From: Candidatus Yanofskybacteria bacterium RIFCSPHIGHO2_01_FULL_41_21 | GTDB taxonomy: Bacteria; Patescibacteriota; Minisyncoccia; 2-02-FULL-40-12; GWA2-44-9 | Direction of reading: 5' to 3' | DNA: 64,000 bases | Assembly (NCBI GenBank): GCA_001794025.1 | Contig: MGJA01000003.1 | Location: 12,909 to 76,908 of the forward strand | Shown: positions 2,219 to 25,738 of the stretch, piece by piece | Position numbering within the stretch: the first letter of the stretch is position 1 | Layout of the letters: every line of letters starts with the position of its first letter | Position numbers and translations under genes: made by a program | Notes under the pieces: model-generated | The model's input: only the letters and a program-made list of their open reading frames with translations | Databases searched by the model: none | Told to the model about the DNA's origin: nothing

Positions 2219-2827
2219 TTAGCTTTTATTTGGTTTAACTAAATCTAAAAATTTTTGGACGTCTTTAGAGAGGCGAATATGATATTTTACCTTTTGATTC
2301 CATTTAGAATTTATCGGTGGCTTAATTGTATAAAGTTTTGGAGTAAAACCAAGGGAAGTAATAAGTTGTTTGACCTCATTAGCTAGTTGTAAATTAATAG
2401 TGCTAAAAATAACCATTTTATAACCACGATCTAAATATATTGAACCATCGGTTTCAATGAGTCCTTTCAAATAATTTATTCGGTGATCTTTATTATCAAA
2501 AATCCATTTCGGCGTAGAGACATTCTGTGTATATTTTGAACCTAACCCAACTTTCCATCCGAGGATATTTTCTAATTGATTTGAGTATACCATGACATCA
2601 GCACATGTTTTTCTATCATAAACACCGATTCTGTTTTTAGGGAGGAGAAGTTGAAGTGATCGCGATATTCTTTTTATCAGATCTGGATATTTTTTATCAC
2701 AGGTTATTCTTAGTCGGGTAGCTCGTCCATTTGGGTTAGAAAGATTACCATCACCTATAGCTAGACCGATGATATAGGCCCGAAGATTTTTATCGTCACT
2801 AATAGGTAGTGTTCGATAATAAGACAT
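2219..2827 (-). CDS. LAGLIDADG family homing endonuclease (double-motif), free-standing next to tRNA-Leu
   Basis: LAIGDGNL and LIETDGSIY motifs. The track ORF extends to 2950 only by reading through the tRNA; the ATG at 2827 (MSYYRTLP...) sits 1 nt after the tRNA 3' end. Confidence 0.7.
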   Translation of the reverse strand: MSYYRTLPISDDKNLRAYIIGLAIGDGNLSNPNGRATRLRITCDKKYPDLIKRISRSLQLLLPKNRIGVYDRKTCADVMVYSNQLENILGWKVGLGSKYTQNVSTPKWIFDNKDHRINYLKGLIETDGSIYLDRGYKMVIFSTINLQLANEVKQLITSLGFTPKLYTIKPPINSKWNQKVKYHIRLSKDVQKFLDLVKPNKS

Positions 2828-2828
2828 G

Positions 2829-2914
2829 TGCCGCTGGTGGGAGTCGAACCCACATGGCCGTGAGGCCGAACGATTTTGAGTCGTTTGCGTAAAACCAGTT
2901 CCGCCACAGCGGCA
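2829..2914 (-). tRNA. tRNA-Leu (anticodon CAA) with long variable arm
   Basis: Reverse complement gives acceptor GCCGCTG/CAGCGGC, anticodon loop CTCAAAA, variable arm CGGCCTCACGGCCATGT and T-arm GGGTTCGACTCCCAC. Confidence 0.8.
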
Positions 2915-2998
2915 ATGCTTTACTTTACCATTTTTGAGGTAAGTTTTCAACCTTTTTGAGGGTTGTTTTTAGACGAATAAATGATATGCTTTTTGTAT

Positions 2999-3928: not shown

Positions 3929-4819
3929 ATGTCTATGAATAAAAAATTCTTTGGTCTAGGTAAGGGCTTAGGTTCTTTAATTCCTGAAGGGGCAAAGGCG
4001 ATGTCGCCGACTTCTCAAAAGGAGAATGTTTTTTATGTTGAGGTCTCCAAAATTGATGCCAACCCCGACCAACCCCGCCGGGACTTTGATAATGATGCGC
4101 TTAAAGAATTATCCGGCTCTATTCGTAAATATGGCGTTCTTCAACCTTTGCTGGTTTCCAAAGTAGAGACCTTGTCCGTGAAGGGGATAGATGTTTCATA
4201 TAATTTAATTGCCGGTGAACGTCGTTTGCGGGCGGCCAAGATGGCGGGTTTGCCTCATGTGCCCGTAATTATTCGCGATGATTTTAAACAGGATAAAGAA
4301 CGTCTGGAAGTGGCTTTGATTGAAAACGTTCAACGCGAAGATTTAAATCCGCTTGAAGAAGCCGAAGCGTACATGAAACTTTCCAAGGATTTTGGTCTGA
4401 CTCAAAAAGAAATCGCCGAAAAGGTTGGTAAGTCCCGCGAAGTTGTAGCCAATACGATTCGTTTGATGAATCTTCCCCAAGATATTAAGGACTCACTTCG
4501 GGCCGGAAAAATCGCTCGCGCCAGCGCTCGCGCTTTGCTCGCTTTCAGTGATCCCGCCAAGCAACGTCAGGTCTACGAAAGTATTTTGGCTGGCGGTGTC
4601 TCTTCTCGTGATGTGGAAACGGCGGCTTCGGTTAATAAGCCCGCTACAAAAAAGCCCCGTCTGACTGAAGGCAAGTTTATTGAACTGGAAAAAAATCTCG
4701 CCGACACTCTCGGTACTCATGTCTCCATTCAGGGCGCCGTCGCCTCCGGCGGAAAAATCGTCATCAAATTCGCCGATCTTCAACACCTCAACAAAATCGC
4801 AAAGAGTATTATCGATTAA
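3929..4819 (+). CDS. parB: Chromosome partitioning protein ParB/Spo0J
   Basis: IAGERRLRAAKMAGL ParB box and HTH region LTQKEIAEKVGKSREVVANTIRL. Confidence 0.9.
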   Translation: MSMNKKFFGLGKGLGSLIPEGAKAMSPTSQKENVFYVEVSKIDANPDQPRRDFDNDALKELSGSIRKYGVLQPLLVSKVETLSVKGIDVSYNLIAGERRLRAAKMAGLPHVPVIIRDDFKQDKERLEVALIENVQREDLNPLEEAEAYMKLSKDFGLTQKEIAEKVGKSREVVANTIRLMNLPQDIKDSLRAGKIARASARALLAFSDPAKQRQVYESILAGGVSSRDVETAASVNKPATKKPRLTEGKFIELEKNLADTLGTHVSIQGAVASGGKIVIKFADLQHLNKIAKSIID

Positions 4820-4826
4820 AAATAGT

Positions 4827-4998
4827 CGCTCCCTCCACCCCAACCCCCGACTCGACCGATAATAAACCTGCTCCAGCGGCAGGTTTTTATCTAGACCGCT
4901 CGGTTCCTCACCAAGCACCTCGGATTATGTCTTCCGCACCCATCGACATAATCCTAGCTTCGGAACCTCCGCGACTTCTCGCTGGGGGTTAGGGTGTT
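4827..4998 (+). repeat. MITE-like repeat copy A (172 bp), perfect inverted copy of 7072-7243. Contains an intrinsic terminator hairpin (4865-4888 + T-tract).
   Basis: Every base of 4827-4998 matches the reverse complement of 7072-7243. Element ends CCAACCCCCGAC / CTGGGGGTTAGG form short imperfect TIRs. Internal hairpins AACCTGCTCCAGCGGCAGGTTTTT and GGATTATGTC...GACATAATCC. Confidence 0.9.
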
Positions 4999-5136
4999 AG
5001 CCGCTTTTATTTGTTTCTAACCAATCATGCAGATTGAGAAAAATTCCAACAACCCCGCTTAGTTTTTACTCAACAACTCAATGGATTGAGCCGTTAGGAC
5101 GGTGTTTAATTAGTTGATTTGAATCAAAAATAATGA

Positions 5137-5970
5137 TTGACTGATTCTATGACTGGCAAACTCTTGTCTAAAATAAAAGATAAACCATATTTTACAGCAA
5201 AAGATTTTGCTTTATATCATAGCGATTCTCTTAAAATTTTAGAACAACTACCCGATAATTCGGTTGACATGATTTTTGCAGATCCCCCCTACAATCTTTC
5301 CAATGGAGGATTCACGGTTCATGCAGGGAAAATGGTGAGTGTAAATAAGGGTAGTTGGGACAAGAGTAAGGGATTTGAAGATGATTTTGCTTTCCATTTG
5401 AAATGGTTGTCGGCTTGTAGACGAGTTTTAAAACCTGAAGGCACCCTTTGGGTTAGTGGAACTTATCATTCAATTTATCAATGTGGCTATGCACTACAGT
5501 CCTTAGGATATCACATACTCAATGATATATCATGGTTTAAGCCAAATGCATCCCCAAATCTAAGTGGTAGATATTTTACAGCAAGTCACGAAACTTTAAT
5601 TTGGGCTAGAAAGGACAGGAAAGCAAAGCATACTTTTAATTATCAACTTACAAAAACAGCCGACTGGAACGGGGATTTTTTAAAAAAACCAGGTCTCCAA
5701 ATGAGATCCGTTTGGGCTATTGGAACACCAAAGCCAGATGAAAAAATTTTTGGGAAACATCCTACCCAAAAACCATTATCATTATTAAAAAGAGTGGTTT
5801 TGTCCAGTACTCAAAAGGGAGATATTATTCTTGACCCATTCACAGGTAGTTCAACAACTGGAATTGCCACAACATTGACTGGTCGCAAGTTTATTGGTAT
5901 TGATCTAGAGAAACAATACTTGGACTTATCTATTAAAAGATTTAATAAATCAAATAAACAAAATGATTAA
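5137..5970 (+). CDS. DNA methyltransferase, beta-class N6-adenine/N4-cytosine (N6_N4_Mtase family)
   Basis: Motif IV FADPPYNL precedes motif I ILDPFTGSSTTGIA, the beta permutation. Overlaps the downstream REase ORF by 8 nt. Confidence 0.85.
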   Translation: MTDSMTGKLLSKIKDKPYFTAKDFALYHSDSLKILEQLPDNSVDMIFADPPYNLSNGGFTVHAGKMVSVNKGSWDKSKGFEDDFAFHLKWLSACRRVLKPEGTLWVSGTYHSIYQCGYALQSLGYHILNDISWFKPNASPNLSGRYFTASHETLIWARKDRKAKHTFNYQLTKTADWNGDFLKKPGLQMRSVWAIGTPKPDEKIFGKHPTQKPLSLLKRVVLSSTQKGDIILDPFTGSSTTGIATTLTGRKFIGIDLEKQYLDLSIKRFNKSNKQND

Positions 5971-6493
5971 CAAAGGTATCGGTGGAGGCAATACGATTAC
6001 AGGATTAAACTTTGAAAGAGAGGGTGATATTTTAGAGCTTCTTAAAAAACAAAAAGGATATACAGTAAAAGGACATATTATTTTTTATAAAGACAAAGAA
6101 GTTGCACAAAGTTATCGGAAAAATGCCCTTTATAAATATCTAGAATCAAAAAAGGTAGATTATAAAAAATATTTATCTAAGAAGCTTCTTCCAGATGAAG
6201 CACTTTATGTAATAGTAAATAATACACTCTTTATTATTGAAATGAAATTTCAGAAAGTTGCTGGATCAGTTGATGAAAAATTGCAGACGTGCGATTTCAA
6301 GAGAAAACAGTATGCTAAATTAATGGCACCTTTGAATATAGAGGTAGAATATATTTATATTTTGAGCGAGTGGTTCAGATCTCCTGTCTACAAAGATGTT
6401 TTGGATTATATTATTTCTGTTGGGTGTCAGTACTATTTTAAATATCTGCCATTACAAAAATTAGGGCTACCGTTACCAAGTGGTCAAGGTTGA
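5963..6493 (+). CDS. Putative type II restriction endonuclease (PD-(D/E)XK)
   Basis: LLPDEALYVIVNNTLFIIEMKFQK matches a PD...ExK catalytic core. Translationally coupled to the MTase. The stop codon sits at the centre of a 15-bp-arm palindrome (6476-6508). Confidence 0.55.
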   Translation: MINKGIGGGNTITGLNFEREGDILELLKKQKGYTVKGHIIFYKDKEVAQSYRKNALYKYLESKKVDYKKYLSKKLLPDEALYVIVNNTLFIIEMKFQKVAGSVDEKLQTCDFKRKQYAKLMAPLNIEVEYIYILSEWFRSPVYKDVLDYIISVGCQYYFKYLPLQKLGLPLPSGQG

Positions 6494-6521
6494 ACCTTGA
6501 CCACTTGGTAATAATTAATTT

Positions 6522-6543
6522 AAAAGCCCCAATAGGGGCTTTT
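6522..6543. terminator. Bidirectional intrinsic terminator hairpin between the convergent REase and small ORF
   Basis: AAAAGCCCC AATA GGGGCTTTT. Confidence 0.6.
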
Positions 6544-6556
6544 AAAGAATAGAGTC

Positions 6557-6811
6557 CTAAGCCCTATTTGATGTATGCTGATTGGTGGGAAGTGGAGGCA
6601 TACGTTCAATATCGTTTGCTGTAGCTTCTAATGCTTCATCCATTGCTTTAGAAATCTCCTCTTTGGAGACGATACCCTTTGAAATAAGGATACTTTCTAA
6701 TGCTCTAAATTTAGCATCTCGGAGCATATCAAATGCCCCATTTATACCAACCTTTTTTGCCATTTTGTTAATGGCAAGCATGACATTATCAGGTTTTTGA
6801 TCTGTTATCAT
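6557..6811 (-). CDS. Hypothetical small protein (84 aa) inside the R-M unit
   Basis: ORF with a ~260-bp AT-rich upstream region (6812-7071). No motif recognised. Confidence 0.4.
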   Translation of the reverse strand: MITDQKPDNVMLAINKMAKKVGINGAFDMLRDAKFRALESILISKGIVSKEEISKAMDEALEATANDIERMPPLPTNQHTSNRA

Positions 6812-7071
6812 GAGTTATGGTCAGCTTAAGATAAATGGAATAATTTTCGACAATAACACGCGGCCACATTCAGCAAGTTCTAAATTGACTGATTTCAGGG
6901 AATGTTGTTTCAGTTATTGTTTCTCGACGTTTTATTCTAAGTATCGAAGTTTGGTTATTTAGATTTTCTGAGGCGACCAAATTCAGTAGTCCGATTACAT
7001 TATACAAAACCATAAAATTTGACGAAATAGCAATAAAATTGTCTCTGTGGATAAATCTGTTGATAACAAAC

Positions 7072-7243
7072 CACAGCGACCAACACCCTAACCCCCAGCG
7101 AGAAGTCGCGGAGGTTCCGAAGCTAGGATTATGTCGATGGGTGCGGAAGACATAATCCGAGGTGCTTGGTGAGGAACCGAGCGGTCTAGATAAAAACCTG
7201 CCGCTGGAGCAGGTTTATTATCGGTCGAGTCGGGGGTTGGGGT
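7072..7243 (-). repeat. MITE-like repeat copy B (172 bp), inverted relative to copy A
   Basis: Reverse complement is identical to 4827-4998. Confidence 0.9.
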
Positions 7244-7253
7244 GGAGGGAGCG

Positions 7254-8756
7254 CTAGGACTTTCTATTGGCTCGGGTCAAGGCCAGGTGGCTTTTGATAT
7301 GATGGCGGGCTTGGGCGGTGCGGACTATTTTTAGCCAATCAAGGGAGGGTTTTAAATCCTTGCCTTTGCCTTTGATAATTTCTACGACATCACCGTTTTT
7401 AAGATTGGTATCGATGGTCGCCATTTTGCCGTTAACTTTGGCACCGCGGATGGCGTGGCCCAGATCGCTGTGAATAGCATAAGCGAAATCAATCGGGGTG
7501 GCGCCTTCGGGTAAGTCCTCAACGTCGCCTTTGGGAGTGAAAACAAAGATGCGATTTTTAAAAAAATCTATTTTTAAAGCGGAAAAACTTTCTTCGGTTC
7601 CAACATCAGCCAGAAATTCTTTTAAGCGATTAATCCAACCGAGTTCTTGAGTATCGGCTTTGATATTTTTTTTGTCGCCCTCGCTGTAAGCCCAGTGGGA
7701 GGCGATACCATTTTCGTTATGGTTTTGCATTTCCGGCGTCCTAATTTGTATTTCCATAATTTTTCCTTTTTCGCAGAAGATTGTGGTATGGAGCGATTGA
7801 TAGCCGTTGGGTTTGGGGAGGGCAATGTAATCCTTAATTAGCCCTGGGAGAGGCGTGTAGTGGGCGTGGATGACACCCAGGGCTTCGTAGCAAGATTTTA
7901 TATCCGGAACGATAATGCGCATAGCTACGATGTCGTAGATTTTGTTCAAGTTCATGTCCTTGTGGAGCAATTTTTGATACAAACTGTACAAATGTTTGGC
8001 TCGGGAATGGATGCTTATAATCGGGATATCGGCATCGGTTAAATGTCGTTCTACAACCGGTTTGGTCCGTTCAAGATAACGCGCGAGATCTTTGTGTTTT
8101 TCTTTTATTTTTCTTTTTAGCCAAGTGTATTCTGTCGGGTAAGCATATTGAAAAGCTAAATCCTCAAGTTGACCCTTCAGATCGCCCATACCTAGCCGAG
8201 CGGCGATAGGGGCGTAGATTTCCAAGGTCTCAAAAGCTATTCGTTGACGATCAATCGGCGGAAGATATTGAACCGTTTGCATATTGTGTAACCGATCAGC
8301 CAATTTAATAAGAATTACCCGCACATCTTCGGCCATGGCAAAAAACATTTTTTTGAGTGTCTGGATGTATTCATTCTTGGATTTATCGGAAATATTAGAT
8401 TGGTAATTTATTTTTTTAAGTTTTGTGAGACCTTCAACAAGAAAAGCAATATCAGCCCCGAAATTTTTGGTTATTGTCTCATTTGTTATATCCGCATCTT
8501 CTAAGGTGTCGTGAAGCAGTGCCGTAATGATACTAGCCGAGTCAAAATTAAGATTGTACAGATACTCCGCGACGGCGATAGGGTGGGTGATAAATTCTTC
8601 CCCCGATAATCTTTTTTGCCCGGCGTGAGCTTTTTCAGCCATAACCAAAGCCCGCTTAACAAGTTCGCGTTCCGAATCCGAATATCTATTGTTATTTATA
8701 AAACTCAAATCAGCCATAAGTAATATTAGGGTACGCCTTCTCGTCAGTTGTCGCAA
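7254..8756 (-). CDS. relA/spoT: Short-form bifunctional (p)ppGpp synthetase/hydrolase (HD + RelA/SpoT synthetase + TGS; no ACT domain)
   Basis: HD motif ALLHDTLED, synthetase domain (RAKHLYSLYQKL...DIVAMRIIV) and TGS-like C-terminus. Alternative start at 8717. Confidence 0.8.
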   Translation of the reverse strand: MRQLTRRRTLILLMADLSFINNNRYSDSERELVKRALVMAEKAHAGQKRLSGEEFITHPIAVAEYLYNLNFDSASIITALLHDTLEDADITNETITKNFGADIAFLVEGLTKLKKINYQSNISDKSKNEYIQTLKKMFFAMAEDVRVILIKLADRLHNMQTVQYLPPIDRQRIAFETLEIYAPIAARLGMGDLKGQLEDLAFQYAYPTEYTWLKRKIKEKHKDLARYLERTKPVVERHLTDADIPIISIHSRAKHLYSLYQKLLHKDMNLNKIYDIVAMRIIVPDIKSCYEALGVIHAHYTPLPGLIKDYIALPKPNGYQSLHTTIFCEKGKIMEIQIRTPEMQNHNENGIASHWAYSEGDKKNIKADTQELGWINRLKEFLADVGTEESFSALKIDFFKNRIFVFTPKGDVEDLPEGATPIDFAYAIHSDLGHAIRGAKVNGKMATIDTNLKNGDVVEIIKGKGKDLKPSLDWLKIVRTAQARHHIKSHLALTRANRKS

Positions 8757-8765
8757 CCGATTCTT

Positions 8766-9014
8766 CTATACTTTCTTAGTGTTTTTGCACTGCGGGAAAC
8801 CCGAACAGGCGAGGAAGGGTCCGAATTGGCCGTTTCGTTTTAGAAGGGGCTTACCGCACTTGTCGCATAGTTGGTCTGTTTTCTCGGCGACTTGTGGCGT
8901 TTTCTTTTCTATATATTTACAGTTGGGATAATTTGAACAAGCCGTGAAGTTGCCAAATCGGCCGGTTTTTACAACCAGGTTACCACTGTGACATTCGGGA
9001 CAGGTTTTATTCAT
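8766..9014 (-). CDS. Stand-alone topoisomerase-type C4 zinc-ribbon protein (two zf-C4_Topoisom-like repeats)
   Basis: CPECHSGNLVVKTGRFGNFTACSNYPNC and CDKCGKPLLKRNGQFGPFLACSGFPQC repeats. Confidence 0.65.
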   Translation of the reverse strand: MNKTCPECHSGNLVVKTGRFGNFTACSNYPNCKYIEKKTPQVAEKTDQLCDKCGKPLLKRNGQFGPFLACSGFPQCKNTKKV

Positions 9015-9028
9015 AGGGGGTTAGCTTA

Positions 9029-11290
9029 TTAGCTTACTGGCTTATTATCTTCATCTTTCTTAGGTTTACCATATTTTTTTACCGGTTTTTGTGGTTTTTC
9101 CTTCCAAGTTTTCAGTGCCTCTTGTAGTTCGGCTTCGCTTTCGGGTTTTTTACCCATCAGGAAAGTACAATCGGGCCAACGAGAACAGGCGTAAAAAAGT
9201 TTACCTCGGCCTCGAGATTTTTTCTCAACTACTTCACCCGTAAGACAATTTGGGCATTTAAAACCGGTTTTGGTAAAGATTTTAGAAATGCCCTTACAGG
9301 TCGGGTAATCAACACAACCCAAAAAATATCCAAAACGTCCGCGTTTTACTTCCATTGGTTTACTGCAGATAGGACAGAGCTCGCCTTGGGTTTTCTCTTG
9401 AAGTTCTTTAATCTTAGCTGCTTCTTCGGGGAGGGGAAGGGAGACCTTACTTCCTGGTTCGGGACAAGCGAGGAATTTACCCATTCGGCCAAATTTCACC
9501 AGCATCATTTTACCACAATGAGGACAGGGGGTAGTGGATTCAACGATAAGCTTTTCAACACTTTCCGTTTTTTCTTTTAGGTTTTTACTGAACGGGGCAT
9601 AGAATTCTTCAACGACCGGAATCCACTTTATTTTGCCTTCGGCAATGTCGTCAAATTCTTCTTCAATGTGAGAAGTAAAGTTAATATCAATAACTTCGGG
9701 AAAATTTTCAACGAGCATGTCATTAACCGAAAAACCAATTTCGGTGGGTTTATATTTTTTATCTTCTTTTTCCACATAACCTCGGTCTTGAATAGTGGTG
9801 AGAGTGGGGGCATAAGTGGAGGGGCGACCGACACCGGCGGATTCAAGGGTTTTAATGAGGGAAGCGTCGGTATATCGGGGAGGCGGTTCGGTGAAGTGTT
9901 GGTCTTTGGCGAGGTTAATCAGATTCAGTAATTCTTTTTCAGATAATTCCGGAAGTTGACCCTCTTCGTAAGAGTCCTCTTCACTTTTTTCATCTTCTTC
10001 TTTGGTTTCGGTATAAGCCCGAATAAAGCCATCAAATTTAACGGCTTGGCCGTTGGCGCGGAAAGTATATTTTGAACCAGCTTGCCCTGAGCTTGTCGAA
10101 TAGGCACTGATATCGGCGGCGGTTTGATCAAGAATAGCGACTTGCATTTGGCAGGCGATAGTTCTTTTCCATATTAAATCATAAAGACGGAGTTGACCCG
10201 AGTCCAAATTTTTATCTAGTTGGTCAGGTAGGCGAGATAGGTCAGTCGGCCGAACGGCTTCGTGGGCTTCTTGAGCGCCTTTGGACTTATTTAAAAACGA
10301 ACGGGGTGCATCAAGACAATACTTGGCACCGAATTCTTTTTTTATAACTTCTTGGGCTTGGGCAAGGGCGATTTCGGAGATATGTAAACTGTCGGTACGC
10401 ATGTAAGTAATCATGCCCGTTTCATATAATCGCTGGGCGAGAGTCATAGTTTGTTTGGCCGAGAACCCCAGTTTTTTAGCGGCTTCTTGTTGAAGGGTGG
10501 AAGTTGTAAATGGTGCCGGCGGAGTTCGGCGGACTTCTTTTTTAACTACTTCAATAACTTTATATTCGGCGCCAGTGAGTTCATCAGTTATTTTCTGGGC
10601 GTCGGCGGAGTTTTTAATACCTAAGCGGTCAATTGATTCTTCTCCTATTTTAACAAGTCGAGCTTTAAAAGTTTTGTCCTCGTCTTTTTTGGAAAGATCA
10701 GCTTCAACGGACCAATATTCTTGGGGTGTGAATTTTTGGATTTCTCGTTCGCGTTCAACAATAAGACGGACGGCGACGCTTTGGACACGACCGGCAGAAA
10801 GTCCGGCTCGGATTTTTTTCCACAAAAATGGAGAGAGTTTGTAACCGACGAGTCGATCAATAATACGTCGGGCTTGTTGAGCGTCAACAAGATTTTGATC
10901 AAGTTCTCGTGGATTAGCGATGGCTTTTTCAATTGCCGGTTTAGTGATTTCATGAAAAACGACTCGTTCTGTTTTGTGGGCAGTTGTTTTCTTATCTAAA
11001 CCAAGAGCGTGGGCTAAATGCCAAGCGATGGCCTCGCCCTCACGGTCAGGGTCGGTTGCCAGAATAACCATATCGGCTTTTTCCGCATCTTTTTTAAGTT
11101 CGCTGACAATTTTTTTGGCTTTAGTCGGAATTATATATTCGGGCTTAAAATTGTGGGCGATATCAATACCAATGCCTTTTTTAGGTAAGTCACGGATATG
11201 ACCAAAAGACGATTTAACAATAAAATCTCCGCCGAGGAAGCGGGAAATTGTTTTAGCTTTAGTTGGCGACTCAACTATTATTAGTTGCAT
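9029..11290 (-). CDS. topA: DNA topoisomerase I
   Basis: Toprim N-terminus MQLIIVESPTKAKTI, catalytic region 'YMRTDS', and three C-terminal Zn ribbons. Confidence 0.9.
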   Translation of the reverse strand: MQLIIVESPTKAKTISRFLGGDFIVKSSFGHIRDLPKKGIGIDIAHNFKPEYIIPTKAKKIVSELKKDAEKADMVILATDPDREGEAIAWHLAHALGLDKKTTAHKTERVVFHEITKPAIEKAIANPRELDQNLVDAQQARRIIDRLVGYKLSPFLWKKIRAGLSAGRVQSVAVRLIVEREREIQKFTPQEYWSVEADLSKKDEDKTFKARLVKIGEESIDRLGIKNSADAQKITDELTGAEYKVIEVVKKEVRRTPPAPFTTSTLQQEAAKKLGFSAKQTMTLAQRLYETGMITYMRTDSLHISEIALAQAQEVIKKEFGAKYCLDAPRSFLNKSKGAQEAHEAVRPTDLSRLPDQLDKNLDSGQLRLYDLIWKRTIACQMQVAILDQTAADISAYSTSSGQAGSKYTFRANGQAVKFDGFIRAYTETKEEDEKSEEDSYEEGQLPELSEKELLNLINLAKDQHFTEPPPRYTDASLIKTLESAGVGRPSTYAPTLTTIQDRGYVEKEDKKYKPTEIGFSVNDMLVENFPEVIDINFTSHIEEEFDDIAEGKIKWIPVVEEFYAPFSKNLKEKTESVEKLIVESTTPCPHCGKMMLVKFGRMGKFLACPEPGSKVSLPLPEEAAKIKELQEKTQGELCPICSKPMEVKRGRFGYFLGCVDYPTCKGISKIFTKTGFKCPNCLTGEVVEKKSRGRGKLFYACSRWPDCTFLMGKKPESEAELQEALKTWKEKPQKPVKKYGKPKKDEDNKPVS

Positions 11291-11312
11291 ATAAAAGGGT
11301 TAGTTCTCAATT

Positions 11313-12179
11313 TTAATTTGATTTCCGGAATATTCCACCTGCCATTTGTTTGATGTGGCCTTGGATCTCCATAAGAGCCAAAGCGCCTATGATTTCCGAT
11401 GCGCCTAGATCCGCGTATTCTATAATGCTATCTATATTCAACGGTCCGTGCGCTTCCAGTATAGCAAGAATCATAGCATGGGTCGGATCTATTGTGGACA
11501 GATGGGGAGATTTTGCAAGAGGAAGCTTTGAGTAATCATCCAGTATATCATGTGATGAAGCGACGAGTTTGGCGCCGGTCCGAATGAGTTTGTGTGGGCC
11601 CATTGATTTTGATGAAAAAATATTTCCCGGAACCGAAAAGACGTCACGGTTCTGTTCGCCAGCGAGGCGGGCGGTGATGAGTGATCCGCTTTTTTCATCC
11701 GCTTCAACAACGAGAACACCTTTTGATAGTCCGCTAATAATGCGATTGCGTTCCGGGAACGAATCTTTGTAGGCGGGGTTCTTTCCGGGATGTTCGGAAA
11801 CAATGAGCCCATCATTTTTTAAGATGTCTTGTCCCAAGCGGAGATTTGTTTCGGGAGTTATCAAATTGATTCCCGAACCAAGAACGGCAATTGTCTTACC
11901 ACCACAATCAAGGGTGGCGCGGTGGGCGACTGCATCAATCCCCAAGGCCAGACCGCTTACAATCGTGAAGTGGCGGGCTAAGCCAGGAACAATTTGCTGA
12001 GTGGCTTCTCGGCCATAGGGTGTCATTGAACGGGTACCCACGACGGCGAAGCATTCGGTATTTAACAAAGATATATTGCCCCGACAATACAGCATCGCCG
12101 GCGGATCGGTAATATGTCGCAGTAGCTTGGGATAGGCCTTTAGTTTTGGGTGTAACTCAACAATCGGGTACTCTGTCAT
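11313..12179 (-). CDS. dprA: DNA processing protein DprA/Smf
   Basis: GLALGIDAVAHRATLDCGGKTIAVLGSGI Rossmann-like DprA core. Conserved dprA-topA synteny. Confidence 0.8.
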   Translation of the reverse strand: MTEYPIVELHPKLKAYPKLLRHITDPPAMLYCRGNISLLNTECFAVVGTRSMTPYGREATQQIVPGLARHFTIVSGLALGIDAVAHRATLDCGGKTIAVLGSGINLITPETNLRLGQDILKNDGLIVSEHPGKNPAYKDSFPERNRIISGLSKGVLVVEADEKSGSLITARLAGEQNRDVFSVPGNIFSSKSMGPHKLIRTGAKLVASSHDILDDYSKLPLAKSPHLSTIDPTHAMILAILEAHGPLNIDSIIEYADLGASEIIGALALMEIQGHIKQMAGGIFRKSN

Positions 12180-24689: not shown

Positions 24690-25582
24690 GCTCGACTCTG
24701 ACATTTCCCTTGCTGTTCTCTCCGCCTGTCTCGCAACCTCGACCTCGTCACTGATGCCGAACAAAAAGGCCACCTGATTTACGCTTCGCTACAAACATCC
24801 TTTTTGTTACCGGCATAGTTTCCTCGGTCTTTGGGCGAGAAGACGGCGTCGTTCAACGCTCGGAAATGCCCGAGCCGAGCTTATTTTTGTGGTTTTTGGC
24901 CCCTATTTTCAATCTTGACTTTTATATGAAATAAGAGTATAATTAAAATATGATTCAATGAGCAGTTCCTTTCAAGGAGGTTGGTAGTGCCGACAGCAAC
25001 AGCAGTTGAAATCCCTTCTCGTGGTTACGCCGACGTTTTCGATCTTCGGATCGAGGGCGACGGAAAGACTCACGGCGTCGGTGCTGGTTCTCAGTACATC
25101 GGCGGTTACTCCGGCATGGGCTGGTACGAGTACTTCATCGACAGGAATACCGGCGAGAAGTACAAGGTCCACTGCTCGGATGGAGTGAACGGTGGCAAGG
25201 ACGCCCACACCGACAAGGATTGCAAGTGGCGACACGATTGCTACTTGGCAATCATCGAGCGAACTCACGCCGAGACCAAGACCGGCCAGACGGTCGTCTA
25301 CATCTCGCGCAACGAATGGGTCATCATGCAGGGGTTCGACCACGGTAAGTGGTTGGAGACCGCCGAGGGCCTGCGCGACGGCGAGCAGAGCAAGGAGAAC
25401 GTTATCGAAGGTGGATTCATTGGCATGTGCCGAGGCATCCCCGTCGTCTGCGATCTCAAGCGTGTGGACAAACTCCCGCCTCGGGAGTAGCCGAAGCACC
25501 ACAGCATAGGCGGAGGGTTGATCCCTCCGCCGAGCCCGACCAACCCTCGGGTTTTTTCATACAAAAAATTGAGGAGCGAAGC
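24690..25582. other. GC-rich (~60%) foreign island in an otherwise AT-rich chromosome
   Basis: Abrupt composition shift. Both strands are open because of the GC bias. Bounded downstream by MITE-like copy C. Confidence 0.7.
24987..25490 (+). CDS. Hypothetical protein encoded in the GC-rich island
   Basis: AAGGAGG RBS at 24974-24980, 6 nt before a GTG (TTG at 24981 also possible). 168-aa ORF; no motif recognised. The antisense ORF 24972-25502 is regarded as a GC artefact. Confidence 0.45.
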   Translation: MPTATAVEIPSRGYADVFDLRIEGDGKTHGVGAGSQYIGGYSGMGWYEYFIDRNTGEKYKVHCSDGVNGGKDAHTDKDCKWRHDCYLAIIERTHAETKTGQTVVYISRNEWVIMQGFDHGKWLETAEGLRDGEQSKENVIEGGFIGMCRGIPVVCDLKRVDKLPPRE

Positions 25583-25738
25583 CCCTAACCCCCAGCGAGA
25601 AGTTGCGCAGGTCAATTTGCTTTAGCCAATTGACGAACCCCCGAAGCTTGGTGCTTGGTGAGGGGGCGAGCGTCTAGATAGCGCCGAGTCGCTGGAACGA
25701 GGTGACTATCGGTCGAGTCGGGGGTTGGGGGCGGAGCT
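25583..25738 (-). repeat. MITE-like repeat copy C (diverged; same family as 4827-4998 / 7072-7243)
   Basis: Shares ends CCCTAACCCCCAGCGAGAAGT... and ...TATCGGTCGAGTCGGGGGTTGGGG with copy B. The centre is diverged. Confidence 0.7.

Follow-up and report, generated by a model that had tools for sequence, protein, structure and literature searches.

A restriction-modification gene pair between inverted copies of a dispersed structured repeat at the parB/relA junction of a Candidatus Yanofskybacteria genome

Furuta, Abe and Kobayashi (2010) described restriction-modification (R-M) complexes flanked by long inverted repeats as 'transposon-like' units (PMC2853133). In the same study, 'chance insertions between repeated sequences' were one class for direct repeats, and high-copy repeats were screened out (PMC2853133). 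Herein, we analyzed a window of 64,000 nucleotides (nt) of contig MGJA01000003.1 (GCA_001794025.1) from Candidatus Yanofskybacteria RIFCSPHIGHO2_01_FULL_41_21, a groundwater metagenome-assembled genome (MAG) of the Patescibacteria or Candidate Phyla Radiation (CPR). In this window, a methyltransferase (MTase) gene and a probable restriction endonuclease gene lie between two inverted copies of a 172-nt repeat, with parB on one side and relA on the other. The locus is like the units of Furuta et al. in that a Type II R-M pair without a transposase is bounded by long inverted repeats, sits between conserved genes, and has an empty site in a relative. However, the inverted repeats of their clearest case are imperfect, unique to the unit and accompanied by an 8-bp target duplication, whereas those found here are perfect, belong to a multi-copy, genome-wide repeat and have no duplication. 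A further difference is that one arm here carries the flank sequence of another locus. We place the present case in the literature on R-M genes flanked by inverted repeats, on its high-copy-repeat side.

[quoted passage not shown] Our locus resembles such cargo in that a small non-coding repeat, present in two inverted copies, encloses its passenger genes and no transposase lies inside, but defined transposase-type ends, target duplications and a cognate IS family were not found here. The small dispersed repeats of the REP/BIME/REPIN, Correia and RUP/BOX types and their like offer another comparison; for the arms, MITE-bracketed cargo and REP- or Correia-type repeats are the closest analogues. 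Repeats of these types can act as terminators and as recombination substrates. The Patescibacteria repeat is like them in being extragenic, often located directly after stop codons and between convergent genes, stably folded and multi-copy. It is longer (130-200 nt) and multi-branched, with a closing stem, two to three hairpins and the loops CGCWGGA and GCUUGGU, and it differs by deep covariation across genera, one-strand G-U asymmetry and the lack of an Rfam model.

Judging from sequence comparison, we consider it rather probable that the R-M genes form an island that was lodged by recombination between resident copies of the repeat, in a hypervariable hotspot. The mobility of arm, cassette and arm as one unit is unproven.

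The inverted repeat and its dispersed copies

The left arm (4827-4998) and the right arm (7082-7253) are inverted copies of each other at 172 of 172 positions (register i+j=12080). The first-pass annotation of this DNA had the perfect identity and the left arm right, but its right arm, 7072-7243, matches at only 45 of the 172 bases; the alignment is complete once that arm is set at 7082-7253. The arms extend imperfectly inward to 5015 and 7065, the inner 17 nt having 5 mismatches (70% identical), and a repeat finder returned 4827-5015 and 7065-7253, or 189 nt at 97%. The runner-up inverted repeats between 3500 and 8500 are no longer than 30 nt, with 72-92% identity. Therefore, the 172-nt repeat exceeds chance by far.

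Both arms abut core genes, as first claimed. The gene parB (3935-4819, plus strand; Pfam ParB_N, HTH_ParB and ParB_C; exact protein A2735_00110) has its stop codon at 4817-4819, and the seven bases AAATAGT separate it from the left arm. On the other side, the stop codon (7254-7256) of a gene of the relA/spoT family (7254-8717, minus strand; Pfam HD_4, RelA_SpoT and TGS; exact protein A2735_00130) directly touches the right arm. There is no direct repeat around the whole unit, as evidenced by comparing the outer flanks ...TTAAAAATAGT and CTAGGACTTT... (AAATAGT on one side and CTAGGAC on the other). The arms have a GC content of 55% and the 2049-nt interior one of 34%, compared with 43-45% for the flanking genes and 40.7% for the window, so that the description of the genome as AT-rich is true only to a moderate degree. 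The join from parB through the arm to the MTase side and that from the side of a small 84-aa open reading frame (ORF) through the arm to relA recur across independent assemblies and assemblers, namely in ANAN16 scaffold_4857, in several MEGAHIT contigs of up to 139 kb, and in JGI and NCBI records. In the public MAG, the locus tags A2735_00110 to 00130 run consecutively across the cassette region.

The arms are copies of a resident, dispersed family of structured repeats of approximately 130-200 nt and not ends specific to the R-M genes, as evidenced by the same 172 nt after the HtrA gene and by a diverged copy at 25580-25735. The view of an R-M module between two MITE-like copies thus holds as far as the arms are copies of a small dispersed repeat, but not in making them the ends of an R-M-specific unit. 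At least four copies reside in this MAG: the two arms, the one at 25580-25735 and the one in the HtrA spacer. The copy at 25580-25735 (plus strand), the third in the window, lies between a high-GC orphan ORF and murJ and was recognized by blastn patches of 79-93% identity and a covariance model score of 93.9 bits. The orphan ORF directly upstream of it (24981-25490, plus strand; 169 aa) has no Pfam family, has its own terminator and contains one of the rare AGNCT sites discussed below.

An exact conserved 20-mer of the repeat occurred at 12 loci in species-representative genomes, with at least 10 in MAG H41-bin020_1, where the copies are mostly at contig ends, and one in a Yanofskybacteria MAG. 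A profile search with nhmmer and the covariance model recovered further copies, diverged ones among them, with many located within the relA/parB gap of relatives: beside parB in L054, L083 and L087, about 300 nt after relA in L063, L069, L070 and L080, and in others upstream of relA. Many family copies begin 0-7 nt past a stop codon. The motif (T/C)CGCT is present on both sides of every copy; it is conserved across deep divergence and may belong to the element. An 8-nt direct repeat, TAGTCGCT, stands on both sides of the HtrA copy.

Searches for a known identity of the repeat were negative. Rfam 15 gave no match for the arms in the window (E<=1) or for four other copies, and the conserved words of the repeat had no hit in the searchable literature. 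The cassette showed no transposase, and neither did the ORFs up to 3 kb away from ten copies, of which only a part was scanned with Pfam. The GTAG/CGTC head of the palindromic, RAYT-mobilized REP/BIME/REPIN units of 20-40 nt was not seen in the repeat, and the RAYT gene was not searched genome-wide. A phage link was rejected: the repeat was absent from viral contigs, which held only two distant (63%) relatives of the nuclease. A link to diversity-generating retroelements (DGRs) was likewise rejected, as no relation of the repeat to a template repeat (TR) or variable repeat (VR) was found. One DGR (L020 4466-6870) comprises bAvd, a reverse transcriptase (RT), a TR at 5839-5948 and a VR at 6261-6370 (77% identity), and its RT stop codon is 11 nt from a family copy. 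The MAG of the window has a bAvd gene and a split RT about 3 kb upstream of the HtrA copy (L135/L136 1-1402).

The repeat is a small, non-coding element whose termini, CACCCYAACCCCC and GGGGGTTRGGGTG, pair as a 12-13-bp stem. Its layout is constant. The 5' part consists of the closing stem P1, the conserved joiner AGCGAGAAGTCGCGCAG and hairpin P3 with GCUUGGU in its loop, sometimes with an extra hairpin; the 3' part consists of the conserved CGAGCGUCUA, hairpin P2 (which has a bulged A and the loop CGCWGGA), a further conserved stretch, GGUCGAGUC, and finally P1's 3' strand. RNAalifold on the raw MAFFT alignment misplaced the optional hairpins, and trimming based on conserved anchors was used instead. 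In nine copies treated in this way, 94.6% of the cells pair, compared with 37-48% for slid partners. Compensatory changes were seen in 19 of the 31 pairs, and none of 500 shuffles was equally good.

On one strand, the non-canonical positions comprise 13 G-U against 1 A-C, and on the opposite strand the proportion is reversed; the other mismatches are tandem G-A/A-G. By this asymmetry, the structure is selected as a single strand, namely the minus strand in the left arm and the plus strand in the right arm. The left structured repeat (4827-5015, strand B on minus) consists of the perfect arm and an inner extension at 4999-5015 with an AGCG motif; it has a covariance model hit at 4837-4995 on the minus strand (101 bits) and a fold z-score of -7.5 on that strand. 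The right structured repeat (7065-7253, strand B on plus) has its imperfect inner extension at 7065-7081 and a hit at 7085-7243 on the plus strand (101 bits). Covarying stems and G-U asymmetry together point to more than a plain MITE, and to a single-stranded structure with a function.

The first-pass annotation also assigned a terminator hairpin to each arm. An 8-bp hairpin followed by TTTTTAT is indeed present on the gene-sense strand of each arm, but the consensus terminator scan did not list it and the T-run is absent from other family members. It is plausible that the hairpin and UUUUUAU just after parB and relA act as a terminator in this subfamily only.

The parB/relA spacer and the HtrA locus

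A scan with RelA yielded 75 related loci, and the convergent relA/parB pair was conserved in about 40 of them. The spacer between the two genes ranges from 2 nt to 2.2 kb across these loci, with unrelated content. In L053-L112, the spacers of 97 nt to 2.2 kb hold several unrelated small ORFs (1.9 kb in L055 and 2.2 kb in L060). In L051/L052 (RelA 84% and ParB 89% identical in amino acids; approximately 80% in nucleotides), the stop codons of relA and parB overlap, which represents the empty site. The empty-site comparison thus yielded a parB/relA junction without the insert, in relatives at about 80% nucleotide identity, while a closer one holds other content. This closest relative, L050 (RelA 96% and ParB 99% in amino acids; approximately 90% in nucleotides), has a spacer of 1255 nt without R-M genes. 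Its spacer begins with a 37-nt family terminus right after the relA TAG, continues with a high-GC ORF of 218 aa without a Pfam family, and ends with a full variant element by parB; the termini together form a 37-nt inverted repeat. The 218-aa ORF is unrelated to the 169-aa ORF of the window, though both are high-GC orphans beside a family copy. Between parB and the element, L050 has an 81-nt tail belonging to its parB end, which the window lacks.

Given the low GC content and the empty site in a relative, the R-M cassette is foreign to its site. Given the content of L050 and of the window at the same place, the parB/relA spacer is a hypervariable hotspot for cargo, which in each of these two close genomes is bounded by element termini.

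A few further observations concern this region. A LAGLIDADG homing-endonuclease-like ORF (2219-2950, minus strand) stands alone between bacA and parA, with a counterpart of lower identity in L050-type relatives. ANAN16 scaffold_4857 is 98.6% identical, with gaps, to window positions 7754-12017 and 100% identical in the cassette, and its topA is annotated as two ORFs (233 and 518 aa) where the window has a single ORF of 753 aa (L001/L010 vs. 8770-12000).

The exact MTase and nuclease proteins were found on many metagenomic contigs, and only in the parB/relA context or joined to HtrA through the repeat. Most cassette contigs break inside the arms, as a multi-copy repeat would predict. Three contigs deviate: L013/L029 joins parB to the 84-aa side (inverted) and carries the right-type inner extension next to parB, L004 joins HtrA to the MTase side, and L014 joins HtrA to the 84-aa side. 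Either recombination in vivo or chimeric assembly could have produced these contigs. L004 encodes the HtrA protein A2735_03520, from the same MAG as ParB A2735_00110 and RelA A2735_00130, and two long contigs (67 and 72 kb) have HtrA, the element and SmpB without the cassette. The HtrA-linked contigs are therefore ruled out as an independent second insertion, and no arm-cassette-arm unit was found at any independent second site or in another genome.

The HtrA copy is 100% identical to both arms across the same 172 nt. On the parB side, the homology overruns both ends of the element: window positions 4820-5046 match L136 5056-5282 with 179 identical nt and then 5 mismatches in 48 nt, so that this block, on the plus strand, consists of 7 nt (AAATAGT), the 172-nt core and 48 nt beyond it. 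The AAATAGT at the parB junction corresponds to the end of the HtrA gene, namely its final codon and its stop codon, followed by T; the relative L049 has AAATAA at the matching HtrA position, followed by a decayed element. Since a transposase acting on element ends would not copy the flanks on both sides, the parB-side arm appears to have arisen by recombination or segmental copying from the HtrA spacer and not by precise transposition. The start of the relA-side arm coincides exactly with the position of an element terminus in L050. The 172 nt are identical in three copies, although the homologous flanks diverge by 10-30%, which points either to gene conversion among the copies or to a conserved target that was hit in a very recent burst. 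Gene conversion, proposed from the start for the perfect identity, is a good explanation in the light of these three copies.

The restriction-modification cargo

The first gene of the cassette (5149-5970, plus strand) encodes an amino-methyltransferase of the beta class (N6A/N4C family), as evidenced by PF01555 (2.3e-56), PADLOC MTase_II (1e-95) and the order of the motifs in its translation, with DPPY N-terminal to FxGxG (DPFTGSSTTG). Its nearest relative is CcrM, which is also the best solved one (PDB 6pbd, 8.9e-63). The motif order is that of the CcrM/M.HinfI group of beta-class N6-adenine MTases. However, the protein lacks the CcrM C-terminal domain (273 vs. 366 aa), is paired with a nuclease, and scores 252 bits against the NCBIfam CcrM equivalog, for which the cut-off is 830. 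The AT-rich leader in front of this gene (5047-5148, plus strand) is presumed from its sequence to hold the MTase promoter; it shows no homology to the HtrA locus beyond 5046, and a promoter scan was not informative.

The second gene (5963-6493, plus strand) starts with an 8-nt overlap of the MTase stop (ATGATTAA) and encodes a protein of 176 aa. Its homologues number about 7000 and are nearly all unnamed ('hypothetical'); those with a named host come from Yanofsky-, Pace-, Falkow- and Nomurabacteria, and the top 120 are 82-100% identical. The residues P77, D78, E93 and K95, which form a PD...ExK signature, are invariant in an alignment of 26 sequences. The match to PF20472 is weak (7.6e-4) and under the cut-off of that family, an AF2 model has a pLDDT of 60, and the fold matches to PD-(D/E)XK endonucleases are weak. 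No PDB sequence match was obtained with the single sequence or a profile, and no PADLOC or NCBIfam model applied. A homologous MTase lies directly upstream of a homologous nuclease, co-oriented, in three unrelated genomic contexts, and the neighbors of these pairs are of defense type (AIPR, GmrSD and HEPN). Given the invariant PD...ExK signature, the conserved pairing in unrelated contexts and the weak fold matches, the 176-aa protein is a probable restriction endonuclease of the PD-(D/E)XK type. The Type II R-M pair named at the outset is thus clear for its MTase and probable for its nuclease.

This pair occurs widely in Patescibacteria and has evidently been exchanged between them. The homologous pairs in other Patescibacteria are accompanied neither by the structured repeat nor by any flanking inverted repeat. 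Across the hosts L125-L132, the nuclease is better conserved (84-94% in amino acids) than its MTase partner (72-76%), and the pair has a GC content of 33-35% in each host, 5-6 points under that of the host. L125 has an extra ORF of 142 aa between the MTase and the nuclease. Contig L015 (1912 nt), compared with window positions 5281-7192, is identical from the nuclease gene through the right arm, while its MTase gene differs at 48 of 690 positions (7%). It is either a second MTase allele joined to the same nuclease or a chimeric contig. An impression from L015 that the arms are more conserved than the cargo was dropped, because all 48 differences are in the MTase part and the remainder is identical.

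The rest of the cassette is less informative. An orphan ORF of 84 codons (6557-6811, minus strand) has no Pfam, NCBIfam or PADLOC family, and among 5.8 billion proteins only itself and one 87% variant were found. It was ruled out as a controller protein because it is an orphan and absent beside the R-M homologues. Two back-to-back terminator-like hairpins (6472-6546) separate it from the convergent nuclease gene; the terminator scan reported a 19-bp stem at 6472-6512 on the plus strand and a 12-bp stem at 6546-6519 on the minus strand. A perfect 16-bp palindrome (CCAAGTGGTCAAGGTT/AACCTTGACCACTTGG) at 6476-6508 spans the nuclease stop codon and is the source of spurious weak Rfam hits (mir-2188 and RalA). 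The AT-rich non-coding spacer at 6812-7064 contains no ORF of at least 60 aa with a family match. The statement that no transposase lies inside was borne out, as Pfam, NCBIfam and PADLOC found no transposase or recombinase domain in the cassette.

The recognition site was sought through word avoidance. GANTC was rejected as the MTase target, since it is not avoided in the genome (observed/expected (O/E) ratio 0.99), in the window or in the hosts of R-M homologues, and the analysis found no avoided word common to those hosts. AGNCT is 12-fold under-represented in the window, with 20 occurrences against 252 expected on both strands. The ten sites (25066, 30612, 33779, 34148, 35693, 35712, 36357, 37331, 38538 and 40950) are all within 25-41 kb, mostly where the GC content falls to 36%, and this stretch resembles an island that was gained recently by a genome subject to AGNCT-specific restriction. 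The HtrA contig shows the same avoidance (0 observed vs. 10.7 expected). It is common to L050 and the HtrA contig, but not to L051, other relatives or the hosts of R-M homologues. AGNCT avoidance was ruled out as a signature of the cassette, because L050 avoids the word without the cassette in its spacer and the hosts of 84-94% identical nucleases do not. TCGA (O/E 0.37) and GCNGC (0.46) are also low in the window.

Origin of the arrangement and its meaning

If the R-M island was lodged by recombination, the cassette would have entered with the repeat copies serving as portable homology. The parB-side arm would have been copied as a segment from the HtrA-SmpB spacer, and the arm on the relA side stands exactly where the closest relative has a terminus as well. 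For at least three copies, gene conversion or a very recent spread would account for the identity of the 172-nt cores. The present arms would give both parB and relA a 3' end with a hairpin and a U-run. With 172 bp of perfect homology, the arms are substrates for homologous recombination, which could flip the cassette or swap it with other loci that bear the repeat, the HtrA copy among them.

Several points weigh against this account. Recombination and gene conversion were judged at the level of assembled contigs. The (T/C)CGCT flanks and TAGTCGCT could be true target duplications of a transposase, which would favor active transposition, and the presence of identical copies at three loci is compatible with a recent burst of transposition as well. 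The covariation alignment was trimmed by hand around conserved anchors and leans to structure, although the P1 and P2 blocks were cut at fixed offsets.

We also considered a composite non-autonomous transposon, in which two MITE copies captured the R-M genes and the 2.4-kb unit was moved in trans by a transposase acting on the outer termini. Such a transposon agrees with the long inverted repeats at both ends, with small elements that have terminal inverted repeats and form a multi-copy family, with the empty site in L051/L052, and with the other cargo of L050, which is bounded by the same type of termini at the relA junction. Identical copies at several loci, the possible 8-nt duplication at the HtrA copy and the published description of R-M genes with long inverted repeats on either side as transposon-like units (PMC2853133) also speak for it. 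We nevertheless regard it as unlikely. No direct repeat surrounds the unit, the left-arm homology to the HtrA locus overruns both element ends, and the one additional context turns out to be a solo copy of the repeat within this MAG. Furthermore, neither the cassette nor the surroundings of the copies examined yielded a transposase, and the R-M homologues elsewhere are without repeats. The mobilization in trans proposed in the first-pass annotation is weakened by the missing target duplication, by this overrun and by the failure to find an independent second site. The two arms might instead be a passive coincidence, parB and relA each having already had a repeat copy at the 3' end and the R-M DNA having come in by illegitimate recombination that did not involve the repeats. 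In many relatives, copies lie next to parB or some 300 nt past relA, and elements often begin 0-7 nt past stop codons, both of which agree with this; chance insertion between repeated sequences is one class for R-M genes flanked by direct repeats (PMC2853133). However, 7 nt from the end of the HtrA coding sequence and 48 nt from downstream of HtrA accompany the parB-side arm, which is therefore not an old resident of the parB end; the 81-nt parB tail of L050 is missing in the window; and old copies of independent origin would not show 100% identity across 172 nt without interaction. We give this coincidence the same small chance as the transposon.

The inverted repeats could also serve to flip the R-M cassette as a programmed phase-variation switch. 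Scaffold L013/L029 has both the inverted orientation and the right-type inner extension that a crossover within the arms predicts, and to this extent the earlier suggestion of inversion between the arms is possible, but the same contig can be an assembly mis-walk through the 172-nt repeat. No invertase or recombinase domain was found in the cassette or the neighboring genes, a flip leaves both genes and their own leader intact so that no expression switch is apparent, and the reciprocal junction of relA with the MTase side was not seen among 13 relA contigs. A programmed switch is thus very improbable. The misplacement of the cassette or its flanking repeats by metagenomic misassembly is hardly credible: the window does come from a MAG, the repeat exceeds the length of typical k-mers, many contigs end within it and three have conflicting joins, but both junctions recur in independent assemblies and the locus tags are consecutive. 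The recombination of an R-M island into the hotspot between resident repeat copies remains the reading that we prefer.

The repeat itself can be regarded as a putative undescribed element marked by the loops CGCWGGA and GCUUGGU, covarying stems and AGCG flanks. More tentatively, it may be a structured element that acts in single-stranded form (RNA or single-stranded DNA) in Patescibacteria, spreads through their tiny genomes, and serves as portable recombination arms that swap defense cargo such as this R-M pair into and out of the parB/relA hotspot and possibly flip it, in organisms with otherwise few classical mobile elements; we think this possible but doubtful.

R-M genes bracketed by long inverted repeats are known already, and what is new here is a well-documented case in the CPR, whose mobile-element biology is poorly known. 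A widespread, unannotated family of small nucleases is constantly paired, in Patescibacteria, with an MTase of the CcrM-like kind. The parB/relA hypervariable cargo hotspot and a dispersed, deeply covarying and strand-specific repeat without an Rfam model are further leads. The repeat family and the nuclease family are more original leads than the arrangement of R-M genes with inverted repeats. If the repeat mediates cargo exchange, it would explain the turnover of defense genes in ultra-small genomes with few transposases.

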